A DNA stretch of 64,000 nt from assembly GCA_964614945.1 (NCBI GenBank), contig CAZTNW010000001.1, positions 30,573-94,572 on the forward strand, in the 5' to 3' direction. The translations under genes and the position numbers were made by a program. Numbering within the stretch: the first letter of the stretch is position 1; each line of letters starts with the position of its first letter. Below are positions 13,719-61,762 of this stretch, piece after piece. The notes below the pieces were generated by a model. The model saw nothing but the letters and a program-made list of their open reading frames with translations. It was not told the origin of the DNA and did no database searches. The stretch is from an uncultured bacterium. GTDB lineage: Bacteria; Caldisericota; JANLFM01.

Positions 13719-14206
13719 AACTTCTTGACGAGATTGAGTCTTTAATTGATCAGGGCAAGAAAATTCCTTTCACGCATAATGTGACGATCAATATGGATAG
13801 GATGCTGGAGCTTCTTGATCAGATCAGAGAAGGCTTCCCCGAGGAACTTTCCCAGGCCAAATGGGTTTTGCAGGAGCGCAAGAAAGTTCTGGAAGAAGCC
13901 CAGCAGGAAGCCGAAAGAGTATTACAGCAGGCCAGGGCACAAGCCCAGGCTCTTGTTTCAGAGAGCGAAATAATCAAACAGGCGGAGGTTAAAAGCAGAG
14001 AGATCTGGGAACGAAGAGGAGAGGAAGCCAGGGCGCTGAAGCGAGATGCTGAAGCCTATGCCGAATCACTGCTGACGAAACTCGAAGGCGTCCTGGAGAA
14101 AGCTCTTACCACTGTTAAAGCAGGCAAAGGGCAACTACGAGCTTCGATCGCGCAGACCGCTCCTTCCACATCCGCCCCAGGGACAAAGTCTGGCCCTTCT
14201 GTTTGA
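13697..14206 (+). CDS. conserved coiled-coil protein of unknown function
   Basis: The central region is rich in charged residues and alpha-helical (EEAQQEAERVLQQARAQAQAL...). The N-terminus carries the motif LLDEIESLIDQGKKIPFT. There is no enzymatic motif. Confidence 0.5.
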   Translation: MEEIGVLELLDEIESLIDQGKKIPFTHNVTINMDRMLELLDQIREGFPEELSQAKWVLQERKKVLEEAQQEAERVLQQARAQAQALVSESEIIKQAEVKSREIWERRGEEARALKRDAEAYAESLLTKLEGVLEKALTTVKAGKGQLRASIAQTAPSTSAPGTKSGPSV

Positions 14207-14386
14207 ATTAAGACCTACTTAACCCCACCGTGCCGTGTGAGGGGGGGTGATGAACCTGCAACTCGCAGGTGGGTTTCCTAACCGAGCAGAGGGAGGGATA
14301 ATTCCCGTCAAGCTCTGGATCAGAATCCCTTTGTTTTTGTGTTGGCTCATACCTTTACCCTTCATCACCAACACCGCAGGGTTTTT

Positions 14387-15652
14387 TCAATCATAAAAGA
14401 TAGAATCCAACCTCGCAAGCAAGGTAGCGGAGGGTACTTCCTCTTGCTCTCCTGTCCTGAGGTTCTTGAGCAAGTTGACTCCCCTGGCTAACTCTTCTTC
14501 CCCCAGAATAATGGCGTAGGCAGCTTTCTTTCGATCTGCTGTCTTGAGCTGAGAGGAGAGGCTGCGCTCTGGGTAAATAAGATCAACGGCGATTCCCCGC
14601 CTGCGCATTTCTAAAGCCATAGCCACGGCCTTTTTGCGGGCTAATTCACCGAGATGCACAATGAAAAGGGAGGGTTTCTCAGCGCCGAATATTTTACCCT
14701 TTTTCTGCATGATTAATAGTGCCCGTTCCATTCCTCCGGCGAAACCTACAGCGGAAGTAGGAGGACCGCCAAGCGTCTCCACCAAGTTATCGTAGCGACC
14801 CCCGCCGCAGAGAGAATTCTGAGCCCCCAACTCGGGAGAGATTATCTCGAAGACGGTACGGGTATAGTAATCGAGGCCGCGTACCAGTCTGGGCTCAATC
14901 TTAAAAGCAAGCCCCATTTCCGTGAGCAAGCTCTCGATCGTTTGGAAATGTATTTGGCATTCCGAGCAGAGATGATCTGTAGGGCGCGGAGCATAATCGA
15001 GAACCCGCACGCAGGAAGGATTTTTGCAATCTAAGATGCGTAAGGGATTACGAGAGAACCGTCTTTGGCAATCGTCGCAGAGCTCCCCGAGTTTTGCTTG
15101 CAGGGCTCTCTCTAATTCTTCGAGAAAGAGAGGTCGGCACTTCCGGCACCCAATTGAATTCAAGAGGACTTGAAACTGCGAAATCCCCAGCTCCATATAA
15201 ATAGAGATAGCAAGGGTTATGATCTCGACATCCAGTTCCGGCTCCTCTCCGCCGATTGCCTCAAACCCAAACTGATGATGTTGTCTATATCGGCCGGCCT
15301 GCGGTCTCTCGTAGCGGAACATTGGGCCCAGGTAATACAGCTTGACGGGAAGTCCTCGATTGGCCAGCTGATGCTGAAGATAAGCCCTGGCCACCCCTGC
15401 CGTCCCTTCAGGGCGCAGGGTGAGACTACGTCCCCTTTTGTCCTGGAAGGTGTACATTTCTTTGGAGACGATATCTGTCTCCATTCCCACTCCTCGCTGG
15501 AATAACTCTGAAAGCTCAAAAAGTGGCAGCCGTATTTCACCGTAGACGAAATTTCGAGCAATGCGTCGGATTAGGCACTCGAGCTGAAACCAGAGCTCTG
15601 AGTCAGGAGGGAGTATATCCTGTGTCCCGCGCGGGGCGTAAATATATTCCAT
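14387..15652 (-). CDS. hisS: histidyl-tRNA synthetase
   Basis: It has the class II aaRS motifs and the HisRS signatures. The preferred start is the M of MEYIYAPRGTQD, which abuts the stop of the upstream gene. Confidence 0.9.
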   Translation of the reverse strand: MEYIYAPRGTQDILPPDSELWFQLECLIRRIARNFVYGEIRLPLFELSELFQRGVGMETDIVSKEMYTFQDKRGRSLTLRPEGTAGVARAYLQHQLANRGLPVKLYYLGPMFRYERPQAGRYRQHHQFGFEAIGGEEPELDVEIITLAISIYMELGISQFQVLLNSIGCRKCRPLFLEELERALQAKLGELCDDCQRRFSRNPLRILDCKNPSCVRVLDYAPRPTDHLCSECQIHFQTIESLLTEMGLAFKIEPRLVRGLDYYTRTVFEIISPELGAQNSLCGGGRYDNLVETLGGPPTSAVGFAGGMERALLIMQKKGKIFGAEKPSLFIVHLGELARKKAVAMALEMRRRGIAVDLIYPERSLSSQLKTADRKKAAYAIILGEEELARGVNLLKNLRTGEQEEVPSATLLARLDSIFYD

Positions 15653-39179: not shown

Positions 39180-40834
39180 TTGAGACCATCGCCATCCACA
39201 ATCTGGCGATCGTAAAGAATCTGACCTTTGATTTGAGCAGAGGTCTCAACGTATTTACCGGTGAAACAGGGACGGGAAAGTCCCTGGTGGTGGATGCGAT
39301 ATCCTTCCTTCTGGGCGGAAGAAGCCAGGGCGAGTGGATAGGGTCAGGCGGAGAAGAGTTGAAGGTGGAGGCAAGCTTGAGCCTGGAAGATTCCCCACAG
39401 AGGGACGAGCTCAAGGAGGTAGGATTCGAGGAGCCCTTCCTTTATATTTCCCGCACTTTAAATCGAGAGGGACGAAGCAGGGCCAGGATCAATGGCAAAG
39501 GTGTGCCTGTAAGCTTTCTGCGAGACACTCTTGCTGGCCTTGTTCACCTTCATGGGCAGCAGGAGCATGAAGCACTGGCTTCCCCTCAATACCAACTGGA
39601 CGCCCTGGATCAATTTGCCGGAGTAGAAGCGCTCGAGCTTCGGATAAAAGCAGAGGGATTTTTGAGTGAAGGGAGGAGGTTGGAAAGAGAAAGGGTCCTG
39701 GCCGAAGAGCAACAGAGGGAGCGGGAAAGACAGCTCGACTTTCTGCGCTACGAGATTATGGAGATCGAGAATGCTCATTTTGCGGGAGAAAGGGAGGAAG
39801 AGGAGCTGCAGAAGAAGAGGGAATTCCTCCGCACACAACTGAAAGTGCAGCAGCATCTACAGCGGATCTCCGATCTACTCGAAGAAGGGCTGCCCAGGAT
39901 GGAAAAAGAAGCGAAGGGATTAGCCGAATTCTCTTTGCTGCATGAAAAATTGGCTGAACTCAGCTCGCGGCTGGCAAACGTAGGAGTGGAATTGAAGGAT
40001 CTGCAGTGGGAATTGAGATCATTTCTCCCTACACTGGAGGCTGAGCCAAACCAGTTGGATTCGATTGAAGAGAGACTCGATTCTATTTCACGTCTGAAAA
40101 GAAAATATGGCTCAACGATTCCTCTGATTCTCTCTTACTTGAGCACTGCTAAGGAAAAACTGGAGTTTCTCGGTCGCATTGAGCATGAGCTATCCGACCT
40201 TGAGGATCAACTGGCAAAAAATTGTGAGCAGTTAACTGGCTCGCTCTCAAGGCTGAGGGTTTTGAGGAGAAAAAAGGCCGGGGAACTCGAGGCTAAAGTA
40301 GTCAGAGGCTTGCAGGAGCTGGGCATCGCCCAGCCGTCATTTTCCATCCTTTACCATGAACTTCCCCAGGATAGTCTGCGCTCTTATGGACTCGACCGGG
40401 TAGAGTATCTTTTTTCCACTAACCCTGGCGAGGAATTGAAACCAATCGGAAAGGTAGCTTCAGGCGGAGAGCTCTCGCGCTTTATGTTGGTCTTAAAGAC
40501 CGCCCTGGCCTCGATTGTCAAAGCCTCCACAGTGGTCTTCGATGAGGTGGATGCCGGGATTGGCGGGATAGTGGGGGAGAGTCTCGCCCGGAAGCTAAGG
40601 CAGCTTTCCTGTTCTCATCAGGTCCTTTGTATAACTCATTTGCCGCAGATTGCAGCGCAGGCAGGTGCGCACTTCGTCGTTGAGAAGAAAACCGTCCGGG
40701 ACCGCACTTCCGTGAAATTGAGACGTGTTTCCGGGCAAGAGCGGGTCCTGGAAATGGCTCGCATGTTGGCTGGGAAAAAGGTTACTTCGGCTGTATTGGC
40801 GCATGCTCGAGAATTAGCGGAAGGGGGGAAATGA
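39164..40834 (+). CDS. recN: DNA repair protein RecN
   Basis: It is an SMC-like protein with an N-terminal Walker A GETGTGKS and long coiled coils, at 556 aa. Confidence 0.9.
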   Translation: MGQLLIETIAIHNLAIVKNLTFDLSRGLNVFTGETGTGKSLVVDAISFLLGGRSQGEWIGSGGEELKVEASLSLEDSPQRDELKEVGFEEPFLYISRTLNREGRSRARINGKGVPVSFLRDTLAGLVHLHGQQEHEALASPQYQLDALDQFAGVEALELRIKAEGFLSEGRRLERERVLAEEQQRERERQLDFLRYEIMEIENAHFAGEREEEELQKKREFLRTQLKVQQHLQRISDLLEEGLPRMEKEAKGLAEFSLLHEKLAELSSRLANVGVELKDLQWELRSFLPTLEAEPNQLDSIEERLDSISRLKRKYGSTIPLILSYLSTAKEKLEFLGRIEHELSDLEDQLAKNCEQLTGSLSRLRVLRRKKAGELEAKVVRGLQELGIAQPSFSILYHELPQDSLRSYGLDRVEYLFSTNPGEELKPIGKVASGGELSRFMLVLKTALASIVKASTVVFDEVDAGIGGIVGESLARKLRQLSCSHQVLCITHLPQIAAQAGAHFVVEKKTVRDRTSVKLRRVSGQERVLEMARMLAGKKVTSAVLAHARELAEGGK

Positions 40835-41883
40835 GAAAATTTCTTATTCTTGTAATCAACCCTGGTTCGACTTCAACTAAAGTTTCCCTTTTTCTGAATG
40901 ATCAGGCCTGGAATGAGTCCACGATTCATCATAAAGAAAGCAAATTGGAGATTCTCGAGAATCTGCCGGAAAGACTCAGGGACATACACAGCTGGCTTTC
41001 CCAAGGACTTAAGCCCCAGCTCGATGGGGTTGTAGCGCGGGGAGGATTGTTGAAGCCTATTTCCTCGGGCACCTACCGGGTAAACGAGGTGATGCTAAAT
41101 GACCTTCGTTTCCGCCCGCAAGCGCAGCACGCCTCTAACCTCGGCGCTTTCATTGCTAAGGAATTAGGGGAAGAGTTCCAGGTGCCGGCATTGATCGTAG
41201 ACCCTGTGTCGGTGGACGAATTTGAGCCACTTGCCCGTTATTCGGGATTGCCCGAACTTCCCCGCAGGGCCCTTTCACATGCCTTAAACATTAAGGCCGT
41301 GGGGAGGAAGGTGGCGCAGGAACTGGGCAAGTCCCTGAGTGAGTGCAATTTTGTCGTCGGGCATTTAGGGGGCGGAATTTCTGTTGTACCGCTTAGAGGC
41401 GGACGTATAATCGATGCGAATGATGCCAATCAGGGAGGGCCGTTCTCCCCGGAAAGAGCGGGTGCTCTTCCCGTCGTCGATTTAGTCCATCTTGCTTATT
41501 CTGGCAAATATTCGGAGAAAGAACTGGTCACGCGTATGGTCAAACGGGGCGGGCTGACCGCTTATCTCGGCACGAACGATGCTAAAGAGGTAGAAGCTCG
41601 AATTCGAGCGGGAGATCGAGAGGCGCAAGAAGTTTATGAGGCGATGGCCTATCAGGTCGCTAAAGAAATCGGAGCTATGGCTACAGTGCTCAAAGGAGAG
41701 TTGGATCGGATTATCCTTACCGGAGGTTTGGCCTTTTCCTCGCTGCTCGTCCCTCTGATTGAGGAGCGAGTTGCCTTTATAGCACCCCTGCAGATCATAC
41801 CGGGAGAGGGAGAGATGGAAGCCTTGGCTTTAGGAGCCCTGAGAGTTCTAACCGGAGAGGAGGAGGCCCAAGAATATGTATAG
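40831..41883 (+). CDS. buk: butyrate (short or branched-chain acyl) kinase
   Basis: It belongs to the ASKHA family with the N-terminus LVINPGSTSTKVSLF, at about 350 aa, and is adjacent to ptb. Confidence 0.8.
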   Translation: MRKFLILVINPGSTSTKVSLFLNDQAWNESTIHHKESKLEILENLPERLRDIHSWLSQGLKPQLDGVVARGGLLKPISSGTYRVNEVMLNDLRFRPQAQHASNLGAFIAKELGEEFQVPALIVDPVSVDEFEPLARYSGLPELPRRALSHALNIKAVGRKVAQELGKSLSECNFVVGHLGGGISVVPLRGGRIIDANDANQGGPFSPERAGALPVVDLVHLAYSGKYSEKELVTRMVKRGGLTAYLGTNDAKEVEARIRAGDREAQEVYEAMAYQVAKEIGAMATVLKGELDRIILTGGLAFSSLLVPLIEERVAFIAPLQIIPGEGEMEALALGALRVLTGEEEAQEYV

Positions 41884-42793
41884 CAAGTTGCAAGAAATCG
41901 CGCAAAGAGCGGCAGGAATCCCGCTGATGACCGCTGCCGTTCCCTGCCCGGAAGAAGCAGATACACTTCTGGGAATTGATCAAGCATTCAAATCCGGTTT
42001 GATTCAGCCCCATTTGTTCGGTGACGAATCGGCAGTAAAGAAATTAGCGAGGGAATCGGGAATTGTCTTAGACGAATACGAACTGCATCATTGCCTTAAC
42101 CAGGAAGAAAGCGCTCTTTCCGCTGTTCAGTTCTGTCGAGAGGGGAAGGGAGAGATACTGATTAAAGGTTTTTTGCCGACGCCGATCTTCCTGAAGGCTG
42201 TTCTGCACAAGGAAAGGGGCATTGGCACGGGATCTCTTCTCTCGCATATAGCTGTTTTTGAGGTTCCGACAATTCCTCGCCTGCTGTTTTTAACCGACGG
42301 GGGAATGGTAGTTGCGCCGACCCTGGCGCAAAAAATAGAGATACTGCAGAACGCCCTGGGGGTTTGTCATGCTCTGGGCATCAGGGAGCCGAAAGTCGCC
42401 ATTCTGGCCTCGGTTGAAACGGTCAGCCCTGAAATTCCCGCCACTTGTGACGCTGCAGTTATTACCGCCATGTGGCGGCGCAGGCAAATTAAGGGATGCA
42501 TCCTGGATGGTCCCCTGGCCCTGGATAATGCTTTATCCCCACAGGCTCTCAAGGAGAAGGGGATCGAGAGTCCAGTGGGAGGAAATGCAGACATTCTCCT
42601 CGTTCCGAATATTGAATCAGGTAATTTGCTGGGAAAATCGTTCATTCATGTGGCCGGAGGGGTGATGGCCGGAGTTGTGCAAGGAGCACGGGTCCCAATA
42701 GTCCTGGTCTCTCGGGTGGATCCGCCTGATTCGAAGCTTTTCTCCGTAGCCATCGCCGCCATGATTAGCTGGCAGGCCAAAGAGAGGGTCTGA
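41876..42793 (+). CDS. ptb: phosphate butyryltransferase / phosphotransacylase
   Basis: It is a PTA/PTB-family protein of 305 aa, adjacent to the acyl kinase. Confidence 0.8.
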   Translation: MYSKLQEIAQRAAGIPLMTAAVPCPEEADTLLGIDQAFKSGLIQPHLFGDESAVKKLARESGIVLDEYELHHCLNQEESALSAVQFCREGKGEILIKGFLPTPIFLKAVLHKERGIGTGSLLSHIAVFEVPTIPRLLFLTDGGMVVAPTLAQKIEILQNALGVCHALGIREPKVAILASVETVSPEIPATCDAAVITAMWRRRQIKGCILDGPLALDNALSPQALKEKGIESPVGGNADILLVPNIESGNLLGKSFIHVAGGVMAGVVQGARVPIVLVSRVDPPDSKLFSVAIAAMISWQAKERV

Positions 42794-43508: not shown

Positions 43509-43737
43509 AGTAAATATTGAGGAGGATTTCTGCAAGGCCTGTGAACTCTGCGTGGCTGTTTGCCCGGTACACGTGCTGGCCCTTTCCAACCGCCTAAATT
43601 CTTTAGGCTACCACCCTGTGGAATTAGTAGACGAGGATGGCTGCATTTCCTGCACTTTTTGCGCCAGGATTTGTCCTGATGCCGCGATCGAGGTCTATCG
43701 CAAAAGCACGGGGCCGAGGCCGGAAAGGAATAAATAA
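43501..43737 (+). CDS. 2-oxoacid:ferredoxin oxidoreductase delta subunit (2x[4Fe-4S] ferredoxin)
   Basis: It has two CxxCxxCxxxCP motifs, at 78 aa. Confidence 0.8.
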   Translation: MNKVNIEEDFCKACELCVAVCPVHVLALSNRLNSLGYHPVELVDEDGCISCTFCARICPDAAIEVYRKSTGPRPERNK

Positions 43738-44801
43738 TGAGCGAGAAGATCCTGATGAAGGGCGCTGAAGCTTGCGCTGAGGCTGCAATCAAAGCAGGCT
43801 GCAGGTTTTTCTTCGGTTACCCGATTACCCCGCAAAATGAGGTAGCTTCTTACATGTCGCGTCGCCTGCCGGAGGTCGGAGGGGTATACCTGCAGGGGGA
43901 GAGTGAAGTAGCTTCAATAAATATGGTATTAGGCGCGGCAGCTGCTGGTGCCAGAGCTATGACCTCTTCGTCTTCTCCAGGCATATCGCTGATGCAAGAA
44001 GGGATTTCTTATATGGTGGGGTGCCAGCTCCCCGCCGTGATAGTTAACTTTGTCAGAGGAGGCCCTGGCCTGGGAGGGATCGGCCCCTCTCAATCCGATT
44101 ACTTTCAGGCGGTTAAAGGAGGAGGACACGGAGATTACAACCTGGTGGTCCTCGCCCCCTCTTCTATCCAGGAGCTGATGGACTTGATGAAGGACGCCTT
44201 CGACATCGCCGATCGCTATCGCAATCCCACCATGGTTTTAGCTGACGGGATAATCGCTCAGATGATGGAGGCGGTCTCCTTCAATTTTGAGATTGATCCG
44301 CCCGCTTTGCCTCCGAAGTCCTGGGCGGTCACCGGGGCCAAAGACAGGAAGAAGAACATCATCAACTCTCTTGAATTGGACCCAGAGAAATTGGAAGCGA
44401 ACAACTGGGAGCTGCAGAAGAAATTTGCCCTCGCTAAAGTGAAAGAGGTTCGCTGGGAAGAATATCTGCTGCAGGATGCCAGCCTGGTTTTGGTTTGTTT
44501 TGGAACGGTTGCCCGGATTGCCAAAAAAGCCATCGATAATTTGCGCGAGCGCGGCATGAATGTGGGGATGATTCGTCCCATCACTCTCTGGCCTTATCCG
44601 ACAGCCCCTTTTGAGAGAGCGATCCCTCATGCCGAGCAGTTTCTTGTTCTGGAAATGAATGCCGGGCAGATGATCGAGGATGTGCGCTTAGCTGTCCAGG
44701 GTGCGAGACCTGTTCACTTTCGAGGCAAGCCAGGCGGGACGATCTTTAATCCATTAGAAGTGGAACGATTTATACTGGAGGAAGCGGTAAAGGAGGCATG
44801 A
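43737..44801 (+). CDS. 2-oxoacid:ferredoxin oxidoreductase alpha subunit
   Basis: It has the POR/VOR/KOR alpha-subunit domains, at 354 aa. Confidence 0.85.
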   Translation: MSEKILMKGAEACAEAAIKAGCRFFFGYPITPQNEVASYMSRRLPEVGGVYLQGESEVASINMVLGAAAAGARAMTSSSSPGISLMQEGISYMVGCQLPAVIVNFVRGGPGLGGIGPSQSDYFQAVKGGGHGDYNLVVLAPSSIQELMDLMKDAFDIADRYRNPTMVLADGIIAQMMEAVSFNFEIDPPALPPKSWAVTGAKDRKKNIINSLELDPEKLEANNWELQKKFALAKVKEVRWEEYLLQDASLVLVCFGTVARIAKKAIDNLRERGMNVGMIRPITLWPYPTAPFERAIPHAEQFLVLEMNAGQMIEDVRLAVQGARPVHFRGKPGGTIFNPLEVERFILEEAVKEA

Positions 44802-52324: not shown

Positions 52325-53683
52325 GTGGGATACGTAGAGACTGTATTCGAAGAGGTTCAGAGAAGAAATCAAAATGAGCCGGAATTTTTGCAAGCAGTGC
52401 GTGAAGTCTTTGAATCCGTCAAGCCTGTTTTTGAGAAGTACCCGCATTTTAGCGAGGCCCGTATTTTGGAGAGGATTGTTGAGCCAGAGAGAGTGGTGAT
52501 TTTCCGGGTTCCCTGGATAGACGACAGAGGGCAATTTCGTGTAAATCGTGGATATCGGATTGAAATGAACAGCGCGATTGGCCCCTACAAAGGCGGCGTT
52601 CGCTTTCATCCCTCAGTCAATTTGAGTATTCTTAAATTCCTTGCTTTTGAGCAGGTTTTCAAAAATAGCCTCACCACTCTTTCCATGGGCGGAGGCAAGG
52701 GCGGATCTGATTTTGATCCGAAAGGCAAGACCGAAAATGAGGTGATGAATTTTTGCCAGAGCTTCATGCTCGAATTGCAGCGGCACATCGGTCCAAACAC
52801 GGATGTGCCCGCAGGGGATATCGGGGTAGGCGCACGCGAGATCGGCTTTATGTTCGGGCAATACAAGCGCATCCGCAATGAATTCACCGGCGTGCTTACG
52901 GGAAAAGGCCTTAATTGGGGAGGTTCTCTTATCAGGCCCGAAGCCACCGGGTACGGCTGTGTATACTTTGCTTTCGAGATGTTGAAGACGACAGGCGAAG
53001 ATTTGCAGGGAAAGGTCTGTCTGGTATCCGGCAGCGGAAACGTCGCCCAGCATACCGTTCAGAAACTGCTGGACCTCGGCGCCAAGCCTGTGAGCCTCTC
53101 TGATTCGGATGGTTTCATCTACGACCCGGAAGGGATAGATCGCGAGAAGTTGGCCTGGGTGATGGAATTGAAGAATTTACGCCGGGGAAGGATTCGGGAG
53201 TACCAGGATCAGTTCAAGGGAGCAAGGTATACCGCTGCTGACACCGTTTTACCTTACAATCCTCTCTGGGCAATTCCCTGCGATTGTGCTTTCCCGAGCG
53301 CAACGCAGAATGAAATAAACGGGAAAGATGCGGAAAACCTTTTACAGGGTGGGTGCAAGTTAGTGGCAGAGGGCGCTAACATGCCTACCAATCCTGAAGG
53401 GGTGGAAAAGTTCCTTGCCGCCAGGATCCATTATGGTCCGGCCAAAGCAGCTAACGCCGGTGGAGTTGCCACCTCCGGCCTCGAGATGTCGCAAAACAGT
53501 ATGAGGCTTAACTGGCCGCGCGAAGAGGTGGATAGGCGCCTGCGCGATATCATGATCGCCATCCATAAGAACTGTTTTGAGACCGCGAAGCTCTTCGGGG
53601 TCCCGGGGAACTACGTGATTGGGGCGAATATTGCCGGCTTCCTCAAAGTAGCTAACGCCATGCTTGATCAAGGATTAGTGTAG
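52325..53683 (+). CDS. gdhA: glutamate dehydrogenase (NADP-type, GdhA-like)
   Basis: It has the GDH signature KGGVRFHP...MGGGKGGSDFDPKG. The GTG start follows AGGAGGGG. Confidence 0.9.
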   Translation: MGYVETVFEEVQRRNQNEPEFLQAVREVFESVKPVFEKYPHFSEARILERIVEPERVVIFRVPWIDDRGQFRVNRGYRIEMNSAIGPYKGGVRFHPSVNLSILKFLAFEQVFKNSLTTLSMGGGKGGSDFDPKGKTENEVMNFCQSFMLELQRHIGPNTDVPAGDIGVGAREIGFMFGQYKRIRNEFTGVLTGKGLNWGGSLIRPEATGYGCVYFAFEMLKTTGEDLQGKVCLVSGSGNVAQHTVQKLLDLGAKPVSLSDSDGFIYDPEGIDREKLAWVMELKNLRRGRIREYQDQFKGARYTAADTVLPYNPLWAIPCDCAFPSATQNEINGKDAENLLQGGCKLVAEGANMPTNPEGVEKFLAARIHYGPAKAANAGGVATSGLEMSQNSMRLNWPREEVDRRLRDIMIAIHKNCFETAKLFGVPGNYVIGANIAGFLKVANAMLDQGLV

Positions 53684-56002
53684 GGATAGCGGGCGGTTAA
53701 GGGCCTTCTCGAAAAAACCTACTGCCCGGTCGGTATCTCCGTCCATAATGACCGAGAGGTTGGAATTTTCTACGACCTTGGGAACATGGATAACCCTGAT
53801 CGTCGAGTCCGATTTATGCGCAGCGGCGGTAAAACGTCGCAGACTGTTATGGGCGTTACGGAAAAAACTTTCATTGAAGACAATTCCGCTATCGTCCGGA
53901 TAGAGGGGCAAATAGCGGATCCCTGCCTCCACCAAATCCTGGAAGAAATGCGTACCGAAGGATAACTCGGGCACGTAGTCTTTCTTCTTCCGAGCTACCT
54001 CGATAAGCATTGCCGTATTGTTGATGTCGCTGTAGCCAACCCGGACACCCAACTTTATATCCCTACTTCCCCAGCGCCCCGGACCGATCAAAATGAATTT
54101 CTGCCGGGGCAATCTGGCGTTCAGCTCGCTTATTGATCGTCCTACCTGGATTAAATCCGAGAGCGTGGAGAGCCGATCGTACTCTTCCGGATCCACATAG
54201 ACGATAAATTCGATCCCCTTTACCTGTGCCGTGTTCACATAGCGGTTAGCGGTGAATAGGATGTCTTTCCTCGGAATGTTTTCCGGAATCGAGACCCTTA
54301 TTGTGCCGCCGACCTGGCTTTGCGGCCGGCACTGTAGCAGGTAGAGCTTGTGGATATCCCCGTCACAAGCGAATTCGATATCCACCGGGAAGCCGAGGGT
54401 CTCCTCCAGAATACCAAATATATCTTTGATCATCGGGATAAAAGGGGCCCCGCCGGAAAGGAGACGAGCAAAGGTTACTACGGGTTTGCCTTCCGATAAC
54501 CTGATTACCGTGCCAGTTGGCGGGATAAGCTGGCCGTCGTGATAGATGGAGATGATCTGGGAAAGGGCGGGGAATTCAGAACCTACCCTCTCGATTACTC
54601 TCTCCACCGGAAGGGTCTCCAACCTTCTTGTCTCCAGATTGATGACATCCATGTTCTTCTGCGAGTACCAGAGGGTCTCCTCCGGGGTTACGTTTACTCT
54701 CAGGCCGGGCTGGCCGGGACTGACCAATACGGGATAATCATCTCCTACCCGGTCCACTGCCCGAGTGCCGAGTCCGGTAACCATGCGGATGATCCCATCC
54801 TTCTTCTTTATGCGGGGAGACCAGCGGAATTCGTTACAAGAGAAGGCCACTCCGGCGAAGGCTGGGAAAAAGTAGTTCCCTGCCCGCCGGCCGACTGCCT
54901 CCTGGATCATGATGGCCATCTCCTCGTTGAAATCCAATAGCCCTCGCTCTCTGCGGTATTCGATCGGGTCGGGGGAGAAAACGCTGGCGTAAATTTCCAA
55001 AATGGCATCAACTAAGGCGCTCAATCTTTCTTTTTTGCTCCCCTGATTGGCGAGAAAGAGGCTTTTGTATTTTCCGGCGAAAGATGAGCCGAAGGTATCC
55101 TCGAGCAGGCTGGACGATCGGACGATCAACGGTCTCTCGCCGAAGTCATCCAGCACGAGGTTCAGGCCGGCGATTATACCGGGCGATAGCTGCGAGTTCT
55201 TGAAGATTTGCTCCAAATAGGGATATTCCTGTCGGATCTCCCCCGGATCTCGGTATTTGATGATCGGCATTTCCTCTAAGGCGTTAAAATGCAGGAAGTC
55301 CATGATCGCATCCGAGGCCAGATACCATGTCTTCGGGACCGTCAGATTCCGCAAGGAGATCGTTTCTTTCTTGGTCAGCAGAATTTTTTCCGCCCGAAAT
55401 AAACCCGCTGCTTTTCCTCCGAGCTTTCCGTTTCCCGAACCGGGGCCGATCGTCTGAGCGAGGATGGTGGCAAAATCCAGGACGGAGACATACTTCTTCG
55501 TCACGTTCAGGTAATCCAGGTCATCGCTGAAGAAACGCCGAATCAGGGCTACCTTGGTGCTGATGGCTTCCTCGGGAGAAAGGTTTTTTTGTGCATCCGG
55601 CATCTGCGCGAAGCGGCGCACGGCGTTGGAAATTTCCGCGAGAGAGACATCTCTTTTTTCCGTGGCCATCGTGAGGAATCGAGCCTGTTCATTTTTGAGC
55701 CAGATCCCCACCATCGTGTTGATTATTTCAAGGGATAGCTCTTTGGCCGCAATCTGAAAGACCTCTTCGATGAATCGATCAAGTACCAACGGGTCTAACC
55801 GCTGAATCGGTTCGTTCTCGCCGACAGGGTGTAAGAGTTGATCAGTTGTCGAACTGAGGCGTCTCATGAGGTCCTGAGCGGAGGAGATATTGCACTTGAA
55901 GAGGTAATTCATCATCTTGCGCCCAATCCGATCGAGGAGATTCGGGTTGGTGTCGCGCAAGAGATCGACAATCACCTTCCACTCAGGTTTCGGCTTACTC
56001 AA
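53675..56002 (-). CDS. PEP-synthase/PPDK-like ATP-grasp (PPDK_N) domain protein with a C-terminal swivel-like domain; lacks the PEP/pyruvate TIM-barrel domain
   Basis: At 775 aa it has GKAAGL and the motif IVRSSSLLEDTFGSSFAGKYKSLFL (compare VAVRSSATxEDLPxASFAGQQ of PEP synthase), plus ...DIEFACDGDIHKLYLLQCRPQ. The C-terminal domain carries GPGRWGS...GTHFFQDL. It overlaps the downstream paralogue by 4 nt. Confidence 0.65.
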   Translation of the reverse strand: MSKPKPEWKVIVDLLRDTNPNLLDRIGRKMMNYLFKCNISSAQDLMRRLSSTTDQLLHPVGENEPIQRLDPLVLDRFIEEVFQIAAKELSLEIINTMVGIWLKNEQARFLTMATEKRDVSLAEISNAVRRFAQMPDAQKNLSPEEAISTKVALIRRFFSDDLDYLNVTKKYVSVLDFATILAQTIGPGSGNGKLGGKAAGLFRAEKILLTKKETISLRNLTVPKTWYLASDAIMDFLHFNALEEMPIIKYRDPGEIRQEYPYLEQIFKNSQLSPGIIAGLNLVLDDFGERPLIVRSSSLLEDTFGSSFAGKYKSLFLANQGSKKERLSALVDAILEIYASVFSPDPIEYRRERGLLDFNEEMAIMIQEAVGRRAGNYFFPAFAGVAFSCNEFRWSPRIKKKDGIIRMVTGLGTRAVDRVGDDYPVLVSPGQPGLRVNVTPEETLWYSQKNMDVINLETRRLETLPVERVIERVGSEFPALSQIISIYHDGQLIPPTGTVIRLSEGKPVVTFARLLSGGAPFIPMIKDIFGILEETLGFPVDIEFACDGDIHKLYLLQCRPQSQVGGTIRVSIPENIPRKDILFTANRYVNTAQVKGIEFIVYVDPEEYDRLSTLSDLIQVGRSISELNARLPRQKFILIGPGRWGSRDIKLGVRVGYSDINNTAMLIEVARKKKDYVPELSFGTHFFQDLVEAGIRYLPLYPDDSGIVFNESFFRNAHNSLRRFTAAAHKSDSTIRVIHVPKVVENSNLSVIMDGDTDRAVGFFEKALNRPLSLH

Positions 56003-58971
56003 GCTCCTGCTCCTTCTGATTTATCAGACCTCAGGACGATCCCCCGTCCGGTACGTCCATCCATCTTGACGATGAAGCCCTCAGAAGATTTTACCACCCT
56101 TAAGTGGTCCGTTTCCTTGAGAGAGGGTTGGGTTTCTAACCAATTCCAATCTAAACCGGATTTTTCATTGTGCGCGCTGACAGTGAAATAGCCGATGCGC
56201 AAAGAAGTCAGGTTCTGGAAAAAGTGCGAACCTTGAGAAGGATCTGGATGCATCCCGGGTAAATCAACTTCCACGATTACTCTGGCCTGACTGATCTGGT
56301 TCCATTTAACCGGAATGCCCAGCCAGGGATCGGAAGAACCCCAGCGCCCCGGACCAATAAGGATAGAGCTGTCGCCTTCTTTTTTCAGCCAATCATTGAG
56401 CAGGCCGATTTCTTGAGCGATTTGGGCGTTATCCTTCGGGTGGAAACTCTGCAGCTTTACGTAGATCAGGTGGTGTATGGGCGGCAGAACTCCGTTCCCC
56501 AATACATGGTCGCTGAAAATGAGAGCGTCTTTCACCGTCTCGGTTAGATCCATACTGACGAGCTCATCGCCGACGACCAGAGGACGGATCTGAAGAAAGC
56601 CGAAATTCACCGGAAACGACTTTTGGTCGTTCCATGAGATGGCAAATTCAATCTCTACAGGATTCCCCATCGCCTGCTTTGCCGTATCCAGCAGATTTAA
56701 AAGAAGGGGAGAGAGGGGGAACGCCTCGCGCTTGAGAATGGGAGCAAAGGTTAAAATCCTCGGACCAGGGGCGGCGATTCCGTCAAGGACTCTTTCATCT
56801 TCCCGGTTATAGGTGGAGGCGATCCAGTCCAGAACCCCGTCCAACTCCGCTTCCTTGAGGTCCAGTTTCACCAGGTATTGATCCTCCTCTGAGAAAGCGG
56901 AGGAGTAACCGGGATGCATATCTATGGCGTAATATTCCCGCTGGGAGTATTTCAGCGTACTGGCAGAGGAGTTGAATTGAGGCAAGATCTGTGGGTAACG
57001 GGGAGAAAACCTCAGGGATACTCCGCCCTCCACGATTGTTTTCCCCAATCCCAGGGCTATATAAGCTACTCCATCTTCTGGTGTGGCGTGACCGAACGGG
57101 TAAAAATTGTATGAACGTGCCACGCCGGAGAGGTGGGGGTAAAATCGCCATCCATGTCTTTCGCCCACAACCTCCTGCACGATGACGGCCATTTTCTCCT
57201 CCTCCGGCAGATGGTGGGTCGATTCTATATAAGTCCGGGCCCGGTGAAAAAAAGTAGAGGCATAGACCAGCTTGATAGCGTTGGTCAGACTGAGGAAACG
57301 CGCATCGGCATCCGGTTCATTATTGGGAATCATTTTGGTGATATAGATGCCGGCGAAGGGCTGATAAAGAGCGTCCTCAAGCAGGCTGGAGGAGCGGACA
57401 GCGAGAGGGAAACGCTCCTCCAGGATGAAATGACGTAGATCCCCGACCAGGGTAGGGGAGAGTTCCGCACCCAGGAATGCACCAGCTATTCTGATGTCGG
57501 ATTTCTCCTCCAAAGCAAACTTAAGAAGTCTGTTTCTCTGAAGAAAATCCTCGAAAATCTCAGTGGAAAGGATTAGTGCTCTCGGTATGCCCACTTCTAC
57601 TTCGGGAAATGTGGTGGGGGAGAAGTTGGAGGCAAGGATCTTGTCCATGAAAGCCAATCCGCGAGCTTTTCCTCCCATCGAGCCCTCTCCAATTCTGCAG
57701 AAATGCCAGGTCTCTATGGGAACGCGGCGGGAAAAAGGGACAACGTTTCCCCTCTGCCTCTTTTGCCTCCAGCTATCGAGCACTTCCTTGATTTCGCGGC
57801 GAATATCTCCTTTTATTTCTCGGGAGGAGAGTTCCTTGGCCAGGCCCAATTCCGTGCGAGCCCAAAGCCAGCGAGTGATATCACCGTTCCGGAACTGGCG
57901 CTCAATAACGCCGGGGGGCAGACTCTCGATAATCGAACTCATGACCTCCAAATTGGGCACCCGGGCTATCTCATGCTGGTCATGATCACGGAATACGAGG
58001 TCCCCGAAGCCGAAGAACTCAAGAAGAAGCAGACGGAAGTCCTCGATCAAGGTTGGGGAGTGTTTATGCAAAAAGCCGGCATTCAGACTGCTTGCGTAGG
58101 CTCTTGTCCTCAGCTCGCTCGATTGCAGCAGGATGGGGAGATGTGGAAGCTCCTCCCTGGCTGAACGAGCAAACTCCAGTCCAGCTAAATTATCCACCTC
58201 TTTGCCCCTGGAAAAGCTGACGTCTGTTATCAGGCCGAGTAAGTGAGATTTAAATTTCTGAAAGATCTGCAGCCCCTCTTCGTAGTCCGTTGCCAGGTGT
58301 ACGCGAGGCCTGCCTCTTTGCCTCAGCAGTCTCTCAGTGAAACTCAGATTCTCCTTAAGAAGCCCATGGGTTAATTTCAAAAGCTCGTCAAAAAGAAAGG
58401 TAAGATAGGCGGAATAGAACTGCACCGAATCCTCGATGACTAGGAGATTGGGCACGCCTATCAGCTCCGTGTCATAGGCAGCGTTTCTTCGGTCCTCGAT
58501 GAACTGGATGATGCCGACAAGGATTTTGCCGTCTCCCTGCCAGAGAAAGATTTTATCGACCGACTTTCCGTCATTTGCCTCAAGAAGGCGCTCCAGCTCA
58601 GGAGTCTGAAAAGCCAGAATTACTACGGGAAGGCCCGGAGAAATTTGCTTTGCTTGCGACCCGAAGGCGAAAGGGTTTATCTCGCCGACCCTCTGCATCG
58701 CTATAACGAGATCGAATCCTTCCCTCTTTATTTCCTCAAGAGCCGTTTCTGCATCCGGCGTCCTGTGGATAACCGGCACATAGCCCAGATTTTTCTCCTG
58801 ATAAGCCTGGTTTAAAAGATCGATCAGGCGACCATCCTCTTCCAGAATAAAGGCGTCATACAGGCTGGCCACAAGGAGAACCTTGCGCACCTTGAAGGGC
58901 ATTAACCTCTGTAGCAGGATTGTTTGGTCATCGGAAAACAACCATTCCCTGTCTGAGTAATTCTTCTCCAT
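55999..58971 (-). CDS. response-regulator receiver fused to a PEP-synthase-like ATP-grasp (PPDK_N) and swivel-like domain
   Basis: At 990 aa it has an N-terminal pseudo-receiver (KVLLVAS...FDLVIAMQ, lacking the acidic pocket and the phospho-Asp). A canonical receiver follows (LLVIEDS...LITDVSF...PILLQSS...FLHKHSP). Then come PPDK_N motifs (GGKARGLAFM, AVRSSSLLEDALYQPFAGIYI, FGFLQIRP) and a C-terminal GPGRWGS...GSHFFQNL. Confidence 0.65.
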   Translation of the reverse strand: MEKNYSDREWLFSDDQTILLQRLMPFKVRKVLLVASLYDAFILEEDGRLIDLLNQAYQEKNLGYVPVIHRTPDAETALEEIKREGFDLVIAMQRVGEINPFAFGSQAKQISPGLPVVILAFQTPELERLLEANDGKSVDKIFLWQGDGKILVGIIQFIEDRRNAAYDTELIGVPNLLVIEDSVQFYSAYLTFLFDELLKLTHGLLKENLSFTERLLRQRGRPRVHLATDYEEGLQIFQKFKSHLLGLITDVSFSRGKEVDNLAGLEFARSAREELPHLPILLQSSELRTRAYASSLNAGFLHKHSPTLIEDFRLLLLEFFGFGDLVFRDHDQHEIARVPNLEVMSSIIESLPPGVIERQFRNGDITRWLWARTELGLAKELSSREIKGDIRREIKEVLDSWRQKRQRGNVVPFSRRVPIETWHFCRIGEGSMGGKARGLAFMDKILASNFSPTTFPEVEVGIPRALILSTEIFEDFLQRNRLLKFALEEKSDIRIAGAFLGAELSPTLVGDLRHFILEERFPLAVRSSSLLEDALYQPFAGIYITKMIPNNEPDADARFLSLTNAIKLVYASTFFHRARTYIESTHHLPEEEKMAVIVQEVVGERHGWRFYPHLSGVARSYNFYPFGHATPEDGVAYIALGLGKTIVEGGVSLRFSPRYPQILPQFNSSASTLKYSQREYYAIDMHPGYSSAFSEEDQYLVKLDLKEAELDGVLDWIASTYNREDERVLDGIAAPGPRILTFAPILKREAFPLSPLLLNLLDTAKQAMGNPVEIEFAISWNDQKSFPVNFGFLQIRPLVVGDELVSMDLTETVKDALIFSDHVLGNGVLPPIHHLIYVKLQSFHPKDNAQIAQEIGLLNDWLKKEGDSSILIGPGRWGSSDPWLGIPVKWNQISQARVIVEVDLPGMHPDPSQGSHFFQNLTSLRIGYFTVSAHNEKSGLDWNWLETQPSLKETDHLRVVKSSEGFIVKMDGRTGRGIVLRSDKSEGAGA

Positions 58972-58992: not shown

Positions 58993-59027
58993 AAAAAGAA
59001 AAAGCGCGGAGGGAATCCGCGCTTTTT
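58993..59027 (-). terminator. intrinsic terminator (bidirectional in form) after the minus-strand gdh gene
   Basis: The hairpin GCGCGGAGGGAAUCCGCGC is flanked by an A-run upstream and a T-run downstream. It lies only 21 nt from the start of the 990-aa gene. Confidence 0.6.
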
Positions 59028-59052
59028 CTTTAGTCCGCGCTTATCAGGTTGG

Positions 59053-60339
59053 TTATATCCAACCCCTCATCTTACAGGCTTCGGCGACTCGCTGAATGGC
59101 GATCATGTAAGCAGCATCACGCACATAGACTTTCTCTTCACGGGCCAGGGCGGAAACCTTCAAGTAGGCGTCAGTCATTTTTGTATCCAGTTTAGCCAGA
59201 GCCTCATCCTTTGTCCAGAAGTAGTTCATGTTGCACTGGACTTGTTCGAAATAACTACACGTCACTCCGCCGGCATTAGCGAGAAAATCCGGGACCACGA
59301 AAATGCCCTTCTCCTTGAGGATTTTGTCCGCTTCGGGAGTGGTGGGACCATTGGCACCCTCCACCATCAGGCGGACGGAATTGGAAATGCGTGCAGCTGT
59401 ATCTCCGGTCACCTGATTCTCTAAGGCCGCAGGAACCAGAATCTCCGCCTCCTGCTCGATCCAGGCCTCTCCTTCGAGGATTTCATAGCCGCATTCCGAG
59501 GCCTTCTTCTTTTGAATGCCGCCGAAAGGGTCTGTAAAAGAGCACAGCTCTTCCAAATTTATCCCGTTCTTCTTGCGGAAAGTATAGGATCTCTGCTCCT
59601 CTTGATCCCAGCAGGATACACAGATGGGTGTTCCACCGTACTCGCTGTATAATTTCACCGCGTGTTGAGCGACATTGCCGAACCCCTGGAAGGCTGCCCT
59701 GGTTTTTTTAATATCGATTCCCAGCTCACGCAAGGCTTCACGCATGACATAAACAACGCCATAGCCCGTGGCCTCCTTCCTGCCCAGTGATCCCCCTACG
59801 CCAAGAGGCTTACCGGTGATGACTCCCGGATAATGACCCCTAAAGATATTCTCGTACTCATCCAGCATCCACACCATATGTTTACCGGAAGTCATTACGT
59901 CGGGAGCAGGAACATCCTGGATAGGGCCTATATTGGCGGCAATTTGGCGGATCCATCCGCGGCACAGGCCTTCTTGTTCTCTCTCGGAAAGATGGTGCGG
60001 ATCACAGATAATTCCGCCCTTCCCCCCTCCAAGAGGAATATCCACCACTGAACATTTCCAGGTCATCCACATGGCTAATGCTCGTACCGTATCGACGGTC
60101 TCCTGCGGGTGAAAGCGTATCCCGCCCTTGCATGGGCCGCGGGCGTCGTTATGCTGGACGCGGAATCCCTGGAAGATTTTGAAGCCCCCATCGTCCATAC
60201 GAACCGGGATTAGAAAATGGAATTCTCTCATTGGGTTTCGTAAAAGATCGCGGGTTGCTTGGTCCAACCCCAGCTTCTCGGCTACGCCATCAAATTGTTG
60301 CTGGGCCATTTTGAAGGCGTTGAAAGACTTGTCAGCCAT
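59053..60339 (-). CDS. gdh: Glu/Leu/Phe/Val dehydrogenase family protein (glutamate dehydrogenase, second copy)
   Basis: It has KGGIRFHP...PLGGGKGG and a Rossmann fold. The preferred start is MADKSF, which follows AAGGAG. Confidence 0.85.
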   Translation of the reverse strand: MADKSFNAFKMAQQQFDGVAEKLGLDQATRDLLRNPMREFHFLIPVRMDDGGFKIFQGFRVQHNDARGPCKGGIRFHPQETVDTVRALAMWMTWKCSVVDIPLGGGKGGIICDPHHLSEREQEGLCRGWIRQIAANIGPIQDVPAPDVMTSGKHMVWMLDEYENIFRGHYPGVITGKPLGVGGSLGRKEATGYGVVYVMREALRELGIDIKKTRAAFQGFGNVAQHAVKLYSEYGGTPICVSCWDQEEQRSYTFRKKNGINLEELCSFTDPFGGIQKKKASECGYEILEGEAWIEQEAEILVPAALENQVTGDTAARISNSVRLMVEGANGPTTPEADKILKEKGIFVVPDFLANAGGVTCSYFEQVQCNMNYFWTKDEALAKLDTKMTDAYLKVSALAREEKVYVRDAAYMIAIQRVAEACKMRGWI

Positions 60340-60491
60340 AACTATCTCCTTCGCCGAACTTGATGTGTTTTTAGAACAAAAAGAGGAATGGAATACTTCC
60401 ATTGCCCCTTACTTAATTGTATGATATCCGAAGGCATTGTCAAGGAATTCTCCTACTCTGCTTTACTTGGTTTTGCGCTCCTCTGCCTGGG

Positions 60492-60529: not shown

Positions 60530-60606
60530 GGGGTCGTGGTGTAGCGGTCTAACATGCAGGCCTGTCACGCCTGAGATCGCGGGTTCAATTCCCGTCGACC
60601 CCGCCA
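60530..60606 (+). tRNA. tRNA-Asp (GTC)
   Basis: The cloverleaf has an anticodon loop CUGUCAC, an acceptor GGGGUCG/CGACCCC and an encoded CCA. Confidence 0.85.
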
Positions 60607-60613
60607 CTTAAGC

Positions 60614-60689
60614 GCCGAGGTAGCTCAGTTGGTAGAGCAGTGGACTGAAAATCCTCGTGTCGGCAGTTCGATTCTGCCCCTCGGCACCA
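60614..60689 (+). tRNA. tRNA-Phe (GAA)
   Basis: The anticodon loop is CUGAAAA and the T-loop is UUCGAUU. The anticodon stem has one U-U mismatch. CCA is encoded. Confidence 0.8.
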
Positions 60690-60820
60690 TCTTTCCCTCA
60701 GGCCAAGCACCTCTATCCTGTTCATTATTGACCGGCTCTGAGCATTTCCTTAGAATAGGCTTGAGCGTCTCCCCCGCTGGACTGATTGTGTAAGTTCTCC
60801 AAGATGAAGGGGCATTTTGA

Positions 60821-60896
60821 GCGGGAATAGCTCAGTCGGTAGAGCATCAGCTTCCCAAGCTGAGGGTCGCGGGTTCGAGTCCCGTTTCCCGCTCCA
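60821..60896 (+). tRNA. tRNA-Gly (CCC)
   Basis: The anticodon loop is UUCCCAA, the acceptor is GCGGGAA/UUCCCGC and CCA is encoded. Confidence 0.85.
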
Positions 60897-60904
60897 AAGA
60901 GAGA

Positions 60905-60978
60905 GGCGACATGGCCAAGTGGCAAGGCAAGGGTCTGCAAAACCCTCACCCCCGGTTCGAATCCGGGTGTCGCCTCCA
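60905..60978 (+). tRNA. tRNA-Cys (GCA)
   Basis: The anticodon loop is CUGCAAA, the acceptor is GGCGACA/UGUCGCC and CCA is encoded. Confidence 0.85.
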
Positions 60979-61004
60979 TCCTTTCGGAAAGAAGGACAGC
61001 AGAC

Positions 61005-61580
61005 ATGCTTTCGTGGGACGTGATCTTTCAGCTTATCCTTTTGGCCTTGTTCCTCGTTCTTACCGTCGGGAAAACCTTCTATTTGAGGTGGGCCAAGCAG
61101 GTCAACGCGATTGTCTTGGGGCGAAGCGCAAGGGGTTCGGTAGAGATCCTAATTTTGGCCACTCTTATCTGGGTGGTTGTTCTGCTCAATCTTTCCGCCG
61201 GCTTTGGCCGAAAGGTTTCTCCAATGGCCGGGAACTATCCCCGTGGAGCTTACCCTGGTCCTGTTCGGCTTTGCCTTTTTTGGAAGCCCTGATTCAATTG
61301 GAAACTTGTGGAGGCTTGGCATTGATGAGAAATACCCGGGGAAACTTGTGACAAAAGGAATTTATGCCTTTACGCGCAACCCCATCTATCTTTTTTTTCA
61401 TCTTTATTTCCTGGGCACTTTCTTCTTGAGAGATTCCGCTATTACCTGTTATTTTTCTCGATCATGGCCCTTTTACTTCATTTAGAGATTGTGCGGGAGG
61501 AAAAATATCTCCTCAGAGTCCACGGGATCATTATGCTAAATATTGCAAGAAGACCGGTAGTACTGGACCTGGAGTATTAA
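61005..61580 (+). pseudogene. isoprenylcysteine carboxyl methyltransferase (ICMT/PEMT) family membrane methyltransferase disrupted by multiple frameshifts
   Basis: N-terminal TM helices lie in frame A (61005-61230). The family signature LVTKGIYAFTRNPIYLFFHLYFLG lies in frame B. The C-terminal EEKYLL and HYAKYCKKTG motifs lie in two further frames. Confidence 0.55.
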
Positions 61581-61664
61581 TTCACCCCACTCTCTCGGCT
61601 AAATCAAGCCTTCCTCCTGAGTCAATAGACAGGAAAATAGGAAACCCTTAAAATTCCAAGCAAA

Positions 61665-61748
61665 GCCGGGGTGGCGGAACAGGCAGACGCAGCGGACTTA
61701 AAATCCGCTTCCCGCGAGGGAGTACCGGTTCGATTCCGGTCCCCGGCA
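61665..61748 (+). tRNA. tRNA-Leu (TAA), class II with a long variable arm
   Basis: The anticodon loop is CUUAAAA, the variable arm is long, and the acceptor is GCCGGGG/CCCCGGC. CCA is not encoded. Confidence 0.85.
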
Positions 61749-61762
61749 CTTTCGCTTGAAAC

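Follow-up and report, generated by a model that had tools for sequence, protein, structure and literature searches.

In a 64,000-nucleotide stretch of DNA from an uncultured Caldisericota bacterium (contig CAZTNW010000001.1; the whole stretch is called the window here), the minus strand carries a gene that we name RR990. Its 990-residue product very probably combines two N-terminal receiver domains (REC1 and REC2) with an enzyme module of the PPDK_N type. Along the minus strand the order is a glutamate dehydrogenase (GDH) gene, GDH_up, an 81-bp gap, RR990, and a gene for a receiver-less paralogue, PAR775; a second GDH gene, GDH_dn, is convergent with PAR775. RR990 is a member of a known, uncharacterised response-regulator architecture, to which the intact REC2 and the link to GDH are the new elements. 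The gene and its domains are as follows.

55999..58971, minus strand: RR990, a protein with the order aspartate-less receiver, receiver, linker, PPDK_N and C-terminal His domain (open reading frame, Pfam, AlphaFold2 model)
58459..58890, minus strand: REC1, residues 28-171, aspartate-less pseudo-receiver (receiver homology, model topology, conservation)
58012..58449, minus strand: REC2, residues 175-320, intact receiver (CheY alignment, AlphaFold2 model, Foldseek, conservation, Pfam matches of orthologues)
57712..57999, minus strand: linker domain, residues 325-420, a beta-hairpin and helical bundle specific to the family (secondary structure of the model)
56557..57702, minus strand: PPDK_N-type ATP-grasp nucleotide-binding domain, residues 424-805 (Pfam, Foldseek, conserved motifs)
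56017..56556, minus strand: family-specific C-terminal domain, residues 806-985, with GPGRWGS (873-879) and SQGSH916FFQN (conservation, shared with PAR775)

Domain architecture of RR990

The start of RR990 is ambiguous, with ATG 58971, TTG 58941 and ATG 58902 as candidates; residue numbers throughout refer to the 990-aa version. Homologues align only from residue 20-23 onward, and the identical database protein, P0001, has 980 aa. The first ATG lacks a Shine-Dalgarno-like sequence, and the TTG and the second ATG are each preceded by AGGGA/AGAGG. The full-length AlphaFold2 model has a pLDDT (predicted local distance difference test) of 87 and a pTM (predicted template modelling score) of 0.83, with residues 1-14 below a pLDDT of 50.

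With the whole protein as query, Pfam PPDK_N was found at residues 431-805 (110.4 bits, E 1.5e-31, cut-off 27) and Response_reg over two stretches (28.8 bits, below the cut-off of 30.2). A phmmer search of the whole protein against PDB sequences gave no match. Neither HisKA nor HATPase_c was matched in Pfam at E≤1, leaving the name 'histidine kinase' carried by some homologues unsupported.

A sequence-only reading of this DNA had divided positions 58041-58890, residues 28-310, into a pseudo-receiver without an acceptor aspartate (~28-125) and an intact receiver (~175-310). Both assignments held. When REC2 was aligned with CheY using hhalign, D250 fell on D57, S284 on T87 and K303 on K109, and by register F300 corresponds to Y106. 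E180 and D181 lie at the end of beta1. The motifs cited for this receiver are all in place: LLVIEDS (176-182), LITDVSF (247-253), PILLQSS (279-285) and FLHKHSP (300-306). The codon for D250, the putative phospho-acceptor, is at 58222-58224. Across 94 homologues conservation is nearly complete for E180 (94), D181 (89), D250 (93, with one Glu), S/T284 (94), F300 (93) and K303 (94).

The REC2 model (residues 170-322; pLDDT 86.7, pTM 0.82) has the beta1-alpha5 topology of a receiver. Its peculiarities are an extended and split alpha1 (183-219) and a beta-hairpin inserted directly after beta3 (253-260). Compared with the PDB using Foldseek, the model gave 82 matches at E≤1e-3, of which the best 50 are all receiver domains (best E 2.4e-6; TM-score on the target up to 0.79). 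Residues 175-310 thus match receivers with a signal far beyond chance, and the acceptor position is conserved. The proposal that phosphorylation controls an ATP-grasp output stands as far as domain order goes, which is borne out family-wide; for phosphorylation itself the evidence is residue conservation. As REC2 keeps the full set of phosphorylation residues, phospho-control is the natural inference, and control of RR990 through REC2 appears likely.

REC1 has lost this set. FDLVIAMQR aligns with YGFVISDWN of CheY, placing M92 (codon 58696-58698) on D57 and A120 on T87, and the acidic-pair position is taken by S36-L37. The acceptor position is therefore hydrophobic in RR990, and no homologue has an acidic residue there (0/94 D/E; M in 46, T in 25, N in 13, the remainder non-acidic). 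Position 120 is mostly Ala. The motifs LLVASLYD (32-39), FDLVIAMQ (86-93) and PVVILAFQ (115-122) were found as the sequence-only reading gave them. In the full model REC1 has regular receiver topology from beta1 to alpha5, and its long alpha5 (149-171) continues directly into REC2. Residues of its own are invariant, D39 and W144 in 94/94 and F142 in 92/94, and close relatives share an EEDG motif, suggesting that REC1 has been selected for something other than phosphotransfer.

Searched separately against Pfam Response_reg (PF00072), REC1 (residues 1-172) reached E 1.3e-3 and REC2 E 0.017. Among 30 orthologous segments of each, E≤1e-3 was reached by 24 for REC1 (best 1.4e-8) and by 10 for REC2 (best 1.6e-5), with no other family matched by the latter. 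A profile of the 30 REC1 segments matched many solved receivers in the PDB (best E 2.9e-6). In sequence, the pseudo-receiver is therefore nearer to canonical receivers than the intact one.

The linker of RR990 has no Pfam match. Those of two longer relatives, P0387 and P0367, weakly match DUF5752 (E 1e-5 and 1e-4), a level that RR990 does not reach.

The output module has the ATP-grasp motifs GGK435, VR526SSS, E773xE775 and Q794. K435, R526, E773, E775 and Q794 are each present in 94/94 homologues, and we take them, from the motifs of phosphoenolpyruvate (PEP) synthase (PPS) and pyruvate phosphate dikinase (PPDK), to form the ATP/Mg site. By Foldseek the catalytic part of the full model resembles rifampin phosphotransferase (RPH; 5hv3, E 8.6e-12), HpeI (9goj, 1.2e-9) and PPDK (1ggo, 5e-5). 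NCBIfam models for PigC, RedH, PEP synthases and RPH gave RR990 9-36 bits, with cut-offs of 456-1350, a similarity at the level of the ATP-grasp fold. The term ATP-grasp output was thus right about PPDK_N and too narrow for the rest, as the module is like those of PEP synthase and RPH and continues into a C-terminal domain with an invariant His.

In this last domain R876 is found in 93 of the 94 homologues, W877 in 92 and H916 in 93. H916 (codon 56224-56226) lies at the N-terminus of a predicted helix. We regard the domain as a candidate swivel-like phosphocarrier histidine domain. A recognisable PEP-utilizers swivel was looked for and rejected: a profile search of the PDB gave chance matches (the gp120 GPGRW loop, longin domains) and Pfam none. 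The fetched loci held no genuine PEP-utilizers proteins from which to build a comparison profile. A reading of the GPGRWGS/E901 region as a Pol-beta nucleotidyltransferase was also set aside, since conservation in our own alignments does not extend to the second acidic residue, D903.

Like RPH (5hv1/5hv3), PEP synthase, PPDK, HpeHI and PigC/RedH, RR990 has the GGK, VRSSS, ExE and Q motifs, and like the dikinases it has a His that is invariant and follows the grasp domain. It differs from them in lacking a recognisable PEP-utilizers swivel, the rifampin-binding domain and the PEP/pyruvate barrel, and in having two added N-terminal receivers.

PleD is activated by phosphorylation-driven dimerisation. 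Like PleD (REC-REC'-GGDEF; PDB 1w25/2v0n), which the full RR990 model matches over the tandem receivers (Foldseek E 1.6e-6), RR990 joins one phosphorylatable receiver and one aspartate-less adaptor to an enzymatic output. In RR990 the order is reversed, with the pseudo-receiver first, the output is PPDK_N rather than GGDEF, and REC2 has the extended alpha1 and hairpin insertion.

The family is large. More than 100 full-length homologues of ~1000 aa are 45-76% identical to RR990 and are variously named 'PEP/pyruvate-binding domain-containing protein', 'CheY-like', 'phosphoenolpyruvate synthase' and 'histidine kinase'. With each GTDB species represented by a single genome, relatives were identified in at least 599 species. 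They include Bacteroidota, Ignavibacteria, Acidobacteriota, Gemmatimonadota, Eisenbacteria, Zixibacteria, Fibrobacteres and Calditrichia, as well as Desulfobacterales, Myxococcota, Chromatiales, Hyphomicrobiales, Spirochaetes, Firmicutes and others. The family thus spans hundreds of species, from soils and sediments to gut-related Bacteroidales. With a Bacteroidales member as query, at least 8000 clusters (90% identity) were found at E≤1e-50. A search with the N-terminal 425 residues as query among 1.84 billion representatives yielded 372 clusters at E≤1e-30. Nearly all full-length matches to this query cover residues ~20-416 and lie at the N-terminus of a ~1000-aa protein; REC1, REC2 and the linker thus form a constant unit reserved for this output. 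Longer variants are rare: P0387 (1557 aa), P0367 (1041 aa) and P0381 (1123 aa), with P0387 carrying an unannotated 588-residue N-terminal extension before the REC1-REC2 module.

Enzymatic-output response regulators are well known, and REC-PPDK is already listed in response-regulator censuses (Galperin et al., Maule et al. 2015; PMC5847659, PMC4395418). With the numbers above, this makes the earlier description of the output as unusual an overstatement. Maule et al. 2015 (PMC4395418) classed 18/18 Response_reg~PPDK_N proteins, from Bacteroidetes, Acidobacteria and Spirochaetes, as aspartate-less. The architecture and phyla are those of the RR990 family, and RR990 is a member of this group. The censuses record one aspartate-less receiver, whereas the family described here has a second, intact receiver before the enzyme. 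REC2 falls below the Pfam threshold and the census saw only REC1, which explains the classification of the whole group as aspartate-less. That class had implied no phosphorylation; REC2 gives the family a canonical phospho-acceptor site, a reason to classify and study it differently. Neither census (PMC5847659, PMC4395418) proposes a function or mentions a linkage to GDH. In our literature search, whose coverage was incomplete so that absence is no proof, no paper assigned a function to the family or noted the GDH link.

Glutamate dehydrogenase genes near the family

The genes surrounding RR990 in the window are the following.

59053..60402, minus strand: GDH_up, glutamate dehydrogenase, directly upstream of RR990 (Pfam ELFV_dehydrog and ELFV_dehydrog_N)
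58993..59033, minus strand, both strands: GC-rich hairpin (GCGCGGA/TCCGCGC) flanked by A and U runs, in the gap between GDH_up and RR990 (sequence, RNA fold)
53675..56002, minus strand: PAR775, receiver-less paralogue (Pfam PPDK_N, 181 bits)
52325..53683, plus strand: GDH_dn, second glutamate dehydrogenase, overlapping PAR775 by 9 bp (Pfam)

PAR775 has the ATP-grasp and C-terminal His domains of RR990, no receivers and an unrelated N-terminus of 190 aa. It is 27% identical to residues 428-978 of RR990 (BLASTP, E 3e-44), and its gene overlaps RR990 by 4 bp if a TTG start is used. As PAR775 has the catalytic module without receivers, the receivers are regulatory add-ons. GDH_dn and GDH_up are 33% identical.

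The pairing with GDH, which the sequence-only reading did not mention, is the strongest functional clue. We surveyed 80 GTDB loci, taking as much as 10 kb of DNA to either side, and found in them 93 genes of the RR990 type (RR-type). A GDH gene is no more than 600 bp away in 42 of the 93 cases and no more than 10 kb away in 59. When all open reading frames (ORFs) of 81 loci were clustered without supervision, GDH was present in 48 and the next family, a heterogeneous set of receiver-containing proteins, in nine. GDH is the only conserved neighbour of the family genes in these loci. The 1.46 Mb of flanking DNA contain 64 GDH genes, presumably about two orders of magnitude over expectation, as roughly estimated from typical genome content.

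Among the adjacent GDH genes, 25 are upstream on the same strand, nine downstream on the same strand and eight on the opposite strand; the median same-strand gap is ~167 bp. RR-type genes adjoin a GDH of the GDH_dn type in 38 of 42 adjacent cases. PAR775-type genes tend to adjoin the GDH_up type (4/7), and GDHs 72-81% identical to GDH_up are found near RR- or PAR-type genes in Chrysiogenia, Aminicenantes and other metagenome-assembled genomes (MAGs). Separate look-ups showed this arrangement in a Chrysiogenia MAG, in a second MAG whose gene order is identical, in an ENA metagenome contig (L004) and in a Bacteroidota genome. Six loci (L008, L012, L016, L033, L053, L055) have repeated GDH-RR units. 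L016, L053 and L055 are Ignavibacteria and Melioribacter loci.

Other genes of related metabolism occur near the family less often. GltD-like genes (Fer4_20 and Pyr_redox_2) are found in six loci (L037, L041, L045, L068, L081, L084) and a 2-oxoacid:ferredoxin oxidoreductase-like gene pair in 6-7 (L026, L057, L061, L066, L083, L084 and window 43737-44801). Both fit a glutamate/2-oxoglutarate theme.

Possible function and competing explanations

We consider it moderately likely that RR990 is an orphan response regulator with a dikinase-like enzyme under the control of phosphorylation, and that this enzyme acts on GDH or on the glutamate/2-oxoglutarate node. GDH is the only conserved neighbour, GDH-regulator pairs are duplicated as units, and a receiver-less paralogue pairs with another GDH type; for these reasons we take GDH or the node as the target, an assignment whose chances we put a little below even. 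In the mechanism we propose, REC1 would serve as an adaptor or dimerisation module. D250 would be phosphorylated by a kinase encoded elsewhere or by a small phosphodonor. The S284/F300/K303 switch would then alter the REC1-REC2-linker arrangement, probably via dimerisation as in PleD, and this would turn the catalytic module on or off. As in PEP synthase or RPH, the module would bind ATP in the grasp domain, place the beta-phosphate on H916 and pass it to an acceptor. The acceptor may be GDH itself, activated or inactivated post-translationally, or a metabolite of the node.

Several observations weigh against this interpretation. REC2 is marginal by sequence alone: the RR990 segment 161-417 gives 15.7 bits (E 0.017, match over 209-299) and misses the Pfam gathering score of 30.2 bits, the family profile reaches E 0.01 against PDB sequences, and the hhalign probability with CheY is 37%. 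The C-terminal 180 residues have no Pfam match in 24 members scanned and no PDB sequence match, and the basis for a phosphohistidine step is one invariant His together with the order in which the secondary-structure elements follow one another. A Pfam scan of 33 window ORFs, among them all 28 with at least 300 aa, turned up no histidine kinase. For 34 of the 93 RR-type genes there is no GDH in the DNA available, and 12 of these are flanked by a complete 10 kb to left and right, so the GDH link is not obligatory; many of the RR-type genes without a nearby GDH sit on truncated contigs. Gene adjacency cannot separate the GDH protein from a metabolite as the target. The hairpin at 58993-59033 folds with -30.3 kcal/mol (z -5.1; 0/200 shuffles as good) and resembles a bidirectional intrinsic terminator, although a consensus terminator scan did not list it. 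Co-transcription of GDH_up and RR990 is therefore uncertain, weakening the simple assumption of a gdh-RR990-PAR775 operon.

A hairpin at this place has a parallel. In glnA-ntrB-ntrC, as in the window, an ammonium/glutamate enzyme gene is followed by a terminator-like hairpin and a receiver-regulator gene, and read-through of a partial terminator before RR990 would resemble that system. The analogy is limited, as the output of RR990 is enzymatic and not DNA-binding, there is no kinase gene, and homology is confined to the receiver domain.

The search for a kinase was extended to the neighbours of the family. Across 81 loci no histidine kinase is a conserved neighbour, and a kinase gene is directly beside an RR-type gene in only two. 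In L024 a 743-aa kinase (12959-15190, plus strand) is just downstream of the RR-type gene; in L067 a 381-aa REC-HisKA-HATPase_c protein (8273-9418, minus strand) is divergent from it. These are possible cognate kinases for those species. The family present in nine of the 81 loci was rejected as a conserved kinase partner, as it consists of mixed receiver-containing proteins with only the two adjacent kinases. Window 40831-42793 (plus strand) has an acetate/butyrate-kinase-like gene adjoining a phosphate acetyl/butyryl-transferase gene. We take this pair to be a possible source of acyl phosphates, which can phosphorylate orphan receivers.

The scarcity of kinases also fits two other explanations. 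RR990 could be a self-contained phosphorelay in which the ATP-grasp domain and H916 form an unconventional histidine kinase, H916 passing phosphate to D250, either in the REC2 of the same protein or in that of a partner, and the phosphorylated receiver being the output. H916 and D250 are invariant within one polypeptide, and swivel-His domains do pass phosphate to proteins, as from Enzyme I of the phosphotransferase system to HPr. We nevertheless think a relay quite improbable: PAR775 and related proteins retain the whole catalytic module and the His but have no receiver, which places the primary acceptor elsewhere, orphan response regulators are common, and nothing observed places H916 near D250. 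Alternatively both receivers could be purely structural, with the acidic pocket of REC2 used for a metal, a ligand or dimerisation and never phosphorylated, and the enzyme constitutive or allosteric. The missing cognate kinase, the divergence of REC2 with its alpha1 extension and hairpin beside the active site, and the classification of the family as aspartate-less in the census literature are consistent with this. Set against them, each of the five phosphorylation residues, and likewise the aromatic switch, is retained by 89-94 of 94 homologues from many phyla, whereas REC1 beside it no longer has them, a pattern that selection for phosphotransfer chemistry would produce. We therefore judge purely structural receivers unlikely.

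The remaining alternatives concern the substrate. That RR990 is a genuine phospho-regulated PEP synthase or PPDK, adjacent to GDH through co-regulation of amino-acid catabolism and gluconeogenesis, seems very improbable. PPDK_N is intact, some homologues are named 'phosphoenolpyruvate synthase', and the 2-oxoacid:ferredoxin oxidoreductase-like genes are near in seven loci. Yet neither PEP-utilizers (PF00391) nor the PEP-utilizers_C barrel (PF02896) was found in RR990 by Pfam at E≤1, the PEP-synthase and PPDK equivalogs of NCBIfam give it 9-34 bits where the cut-offs are 456-1063, and the C-terminal 180 residues match nothing known. With the PEP/pyruvate barrel absent, the 'PEP synthase' annotations of homologues are unsupported. 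The closest solved relatives act on small molecules, and about a third of the family genes have no nearby GDH; the module might thus phosphorylate a small molecule that has nothing to do with GDH, for instance a xenobiotic or a secondary metabolite as in RPH, HpeHI and PigC, with the adjacency a non-functional syntenic remnant. This too we find unlikely. GDH adjacency recurs in lineages as far apart as Bacteroidota, Acidobacteriota, Gemmatimonadota, Desulfobacterales, Myxococcota, Chrysiogenia and the window organism, the gene order and orientation vary and the pairs are duplicated, a picture that would not be expected of a remnant.

Returning to GDH or its node as the target, duplicated genes are paired one to one with GDH paralogues, which speaks for the cognate GDH protein rather than for a metabolite that the pairs share. 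Tentatively, the family and its receiver-less paralogues may be GDH-modifying enzymes that activate or inactivate GDH covalently by phosphoryl transfer via H916, under two-component control. GDH is a central carbon/nitrogen branch point whose signal-dependent post-translational control in bacteria is poorly understood. If GDH is the target, a new enzyme class, an ATP-grasp/His dikinase, would stand beside GlnE, GlnD and PII in nitrogen regulation. The duplicated, cross-phylum pairing with GDH makes this a concrete and testable hypothesis.

Older reports describe a reversible inactivation of Bacteroides GDH in vivo, for which GDH modification, if true, would supply a mechanism. Baggio and Morrison reportedly found in 1996 that B. 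thetaiotaomicron GdhA is active in E. coli only if a ~3-kb region from downstream of gdhA acts in trans. This region may encode a family member, which we treat as a lead, not as evidence. Our search for a Bacteroides homologue returned environmental Bacteroidales only. The idea that the B. thetaiotaomicron GDH genes are BT1970 and BT1973, with a family gene between them, did not hold, BT1971 being a catalase. BT1969 appears in a paper on organic-acid synthesis pathways; no claim here rests on BT locus tags.

Further features of the window and related loci

The region containing GDH_up, RR990 and PAR775 is bounded on its upstream side by a tRNA cluster.

60416..60443, minus strand: sigma-70-like promoter match TTGACA-16-TACAAT, 11/12, upstream of GDH_up (consensus match alone)
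60530-61749, plus strand: five tRNA genes (Asp-GTC, Phe-GAA, Gly-CCC, Cys-GCA, Leu-TAA), transcribed divergently from the promoter region of GDH_up

The antisense ORFs listed within the cluster are therefore spurious.

Seven Bacteroidales loci have two RR-type genes in tandem, 36-41% identical to RR990 (L027, L039, L061, L066, L079, L082, L083). Four of them, L039, L079, L082 and L083, have a GDH within 10 kb.

Pol-beta-type nucleotidyltransferases are the domain type of GlnE and GlnD, modifiers of nitrogen-metabolism proteins. A domain of this type (NTP_transf_2, E 9.4e-8) is at the C-terminus of a receiver-less paralogue of 1060-1063 aa encoded in the Chrysiogenia MAG (L001:13790-16981, minus strand) and in L003 (14532-17714, minus strand), which has the same gene order. 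In both loci the paralogue adjoins a GDH gene, and a Metallophos phosphoesterase gene comes after the RR-type gene.

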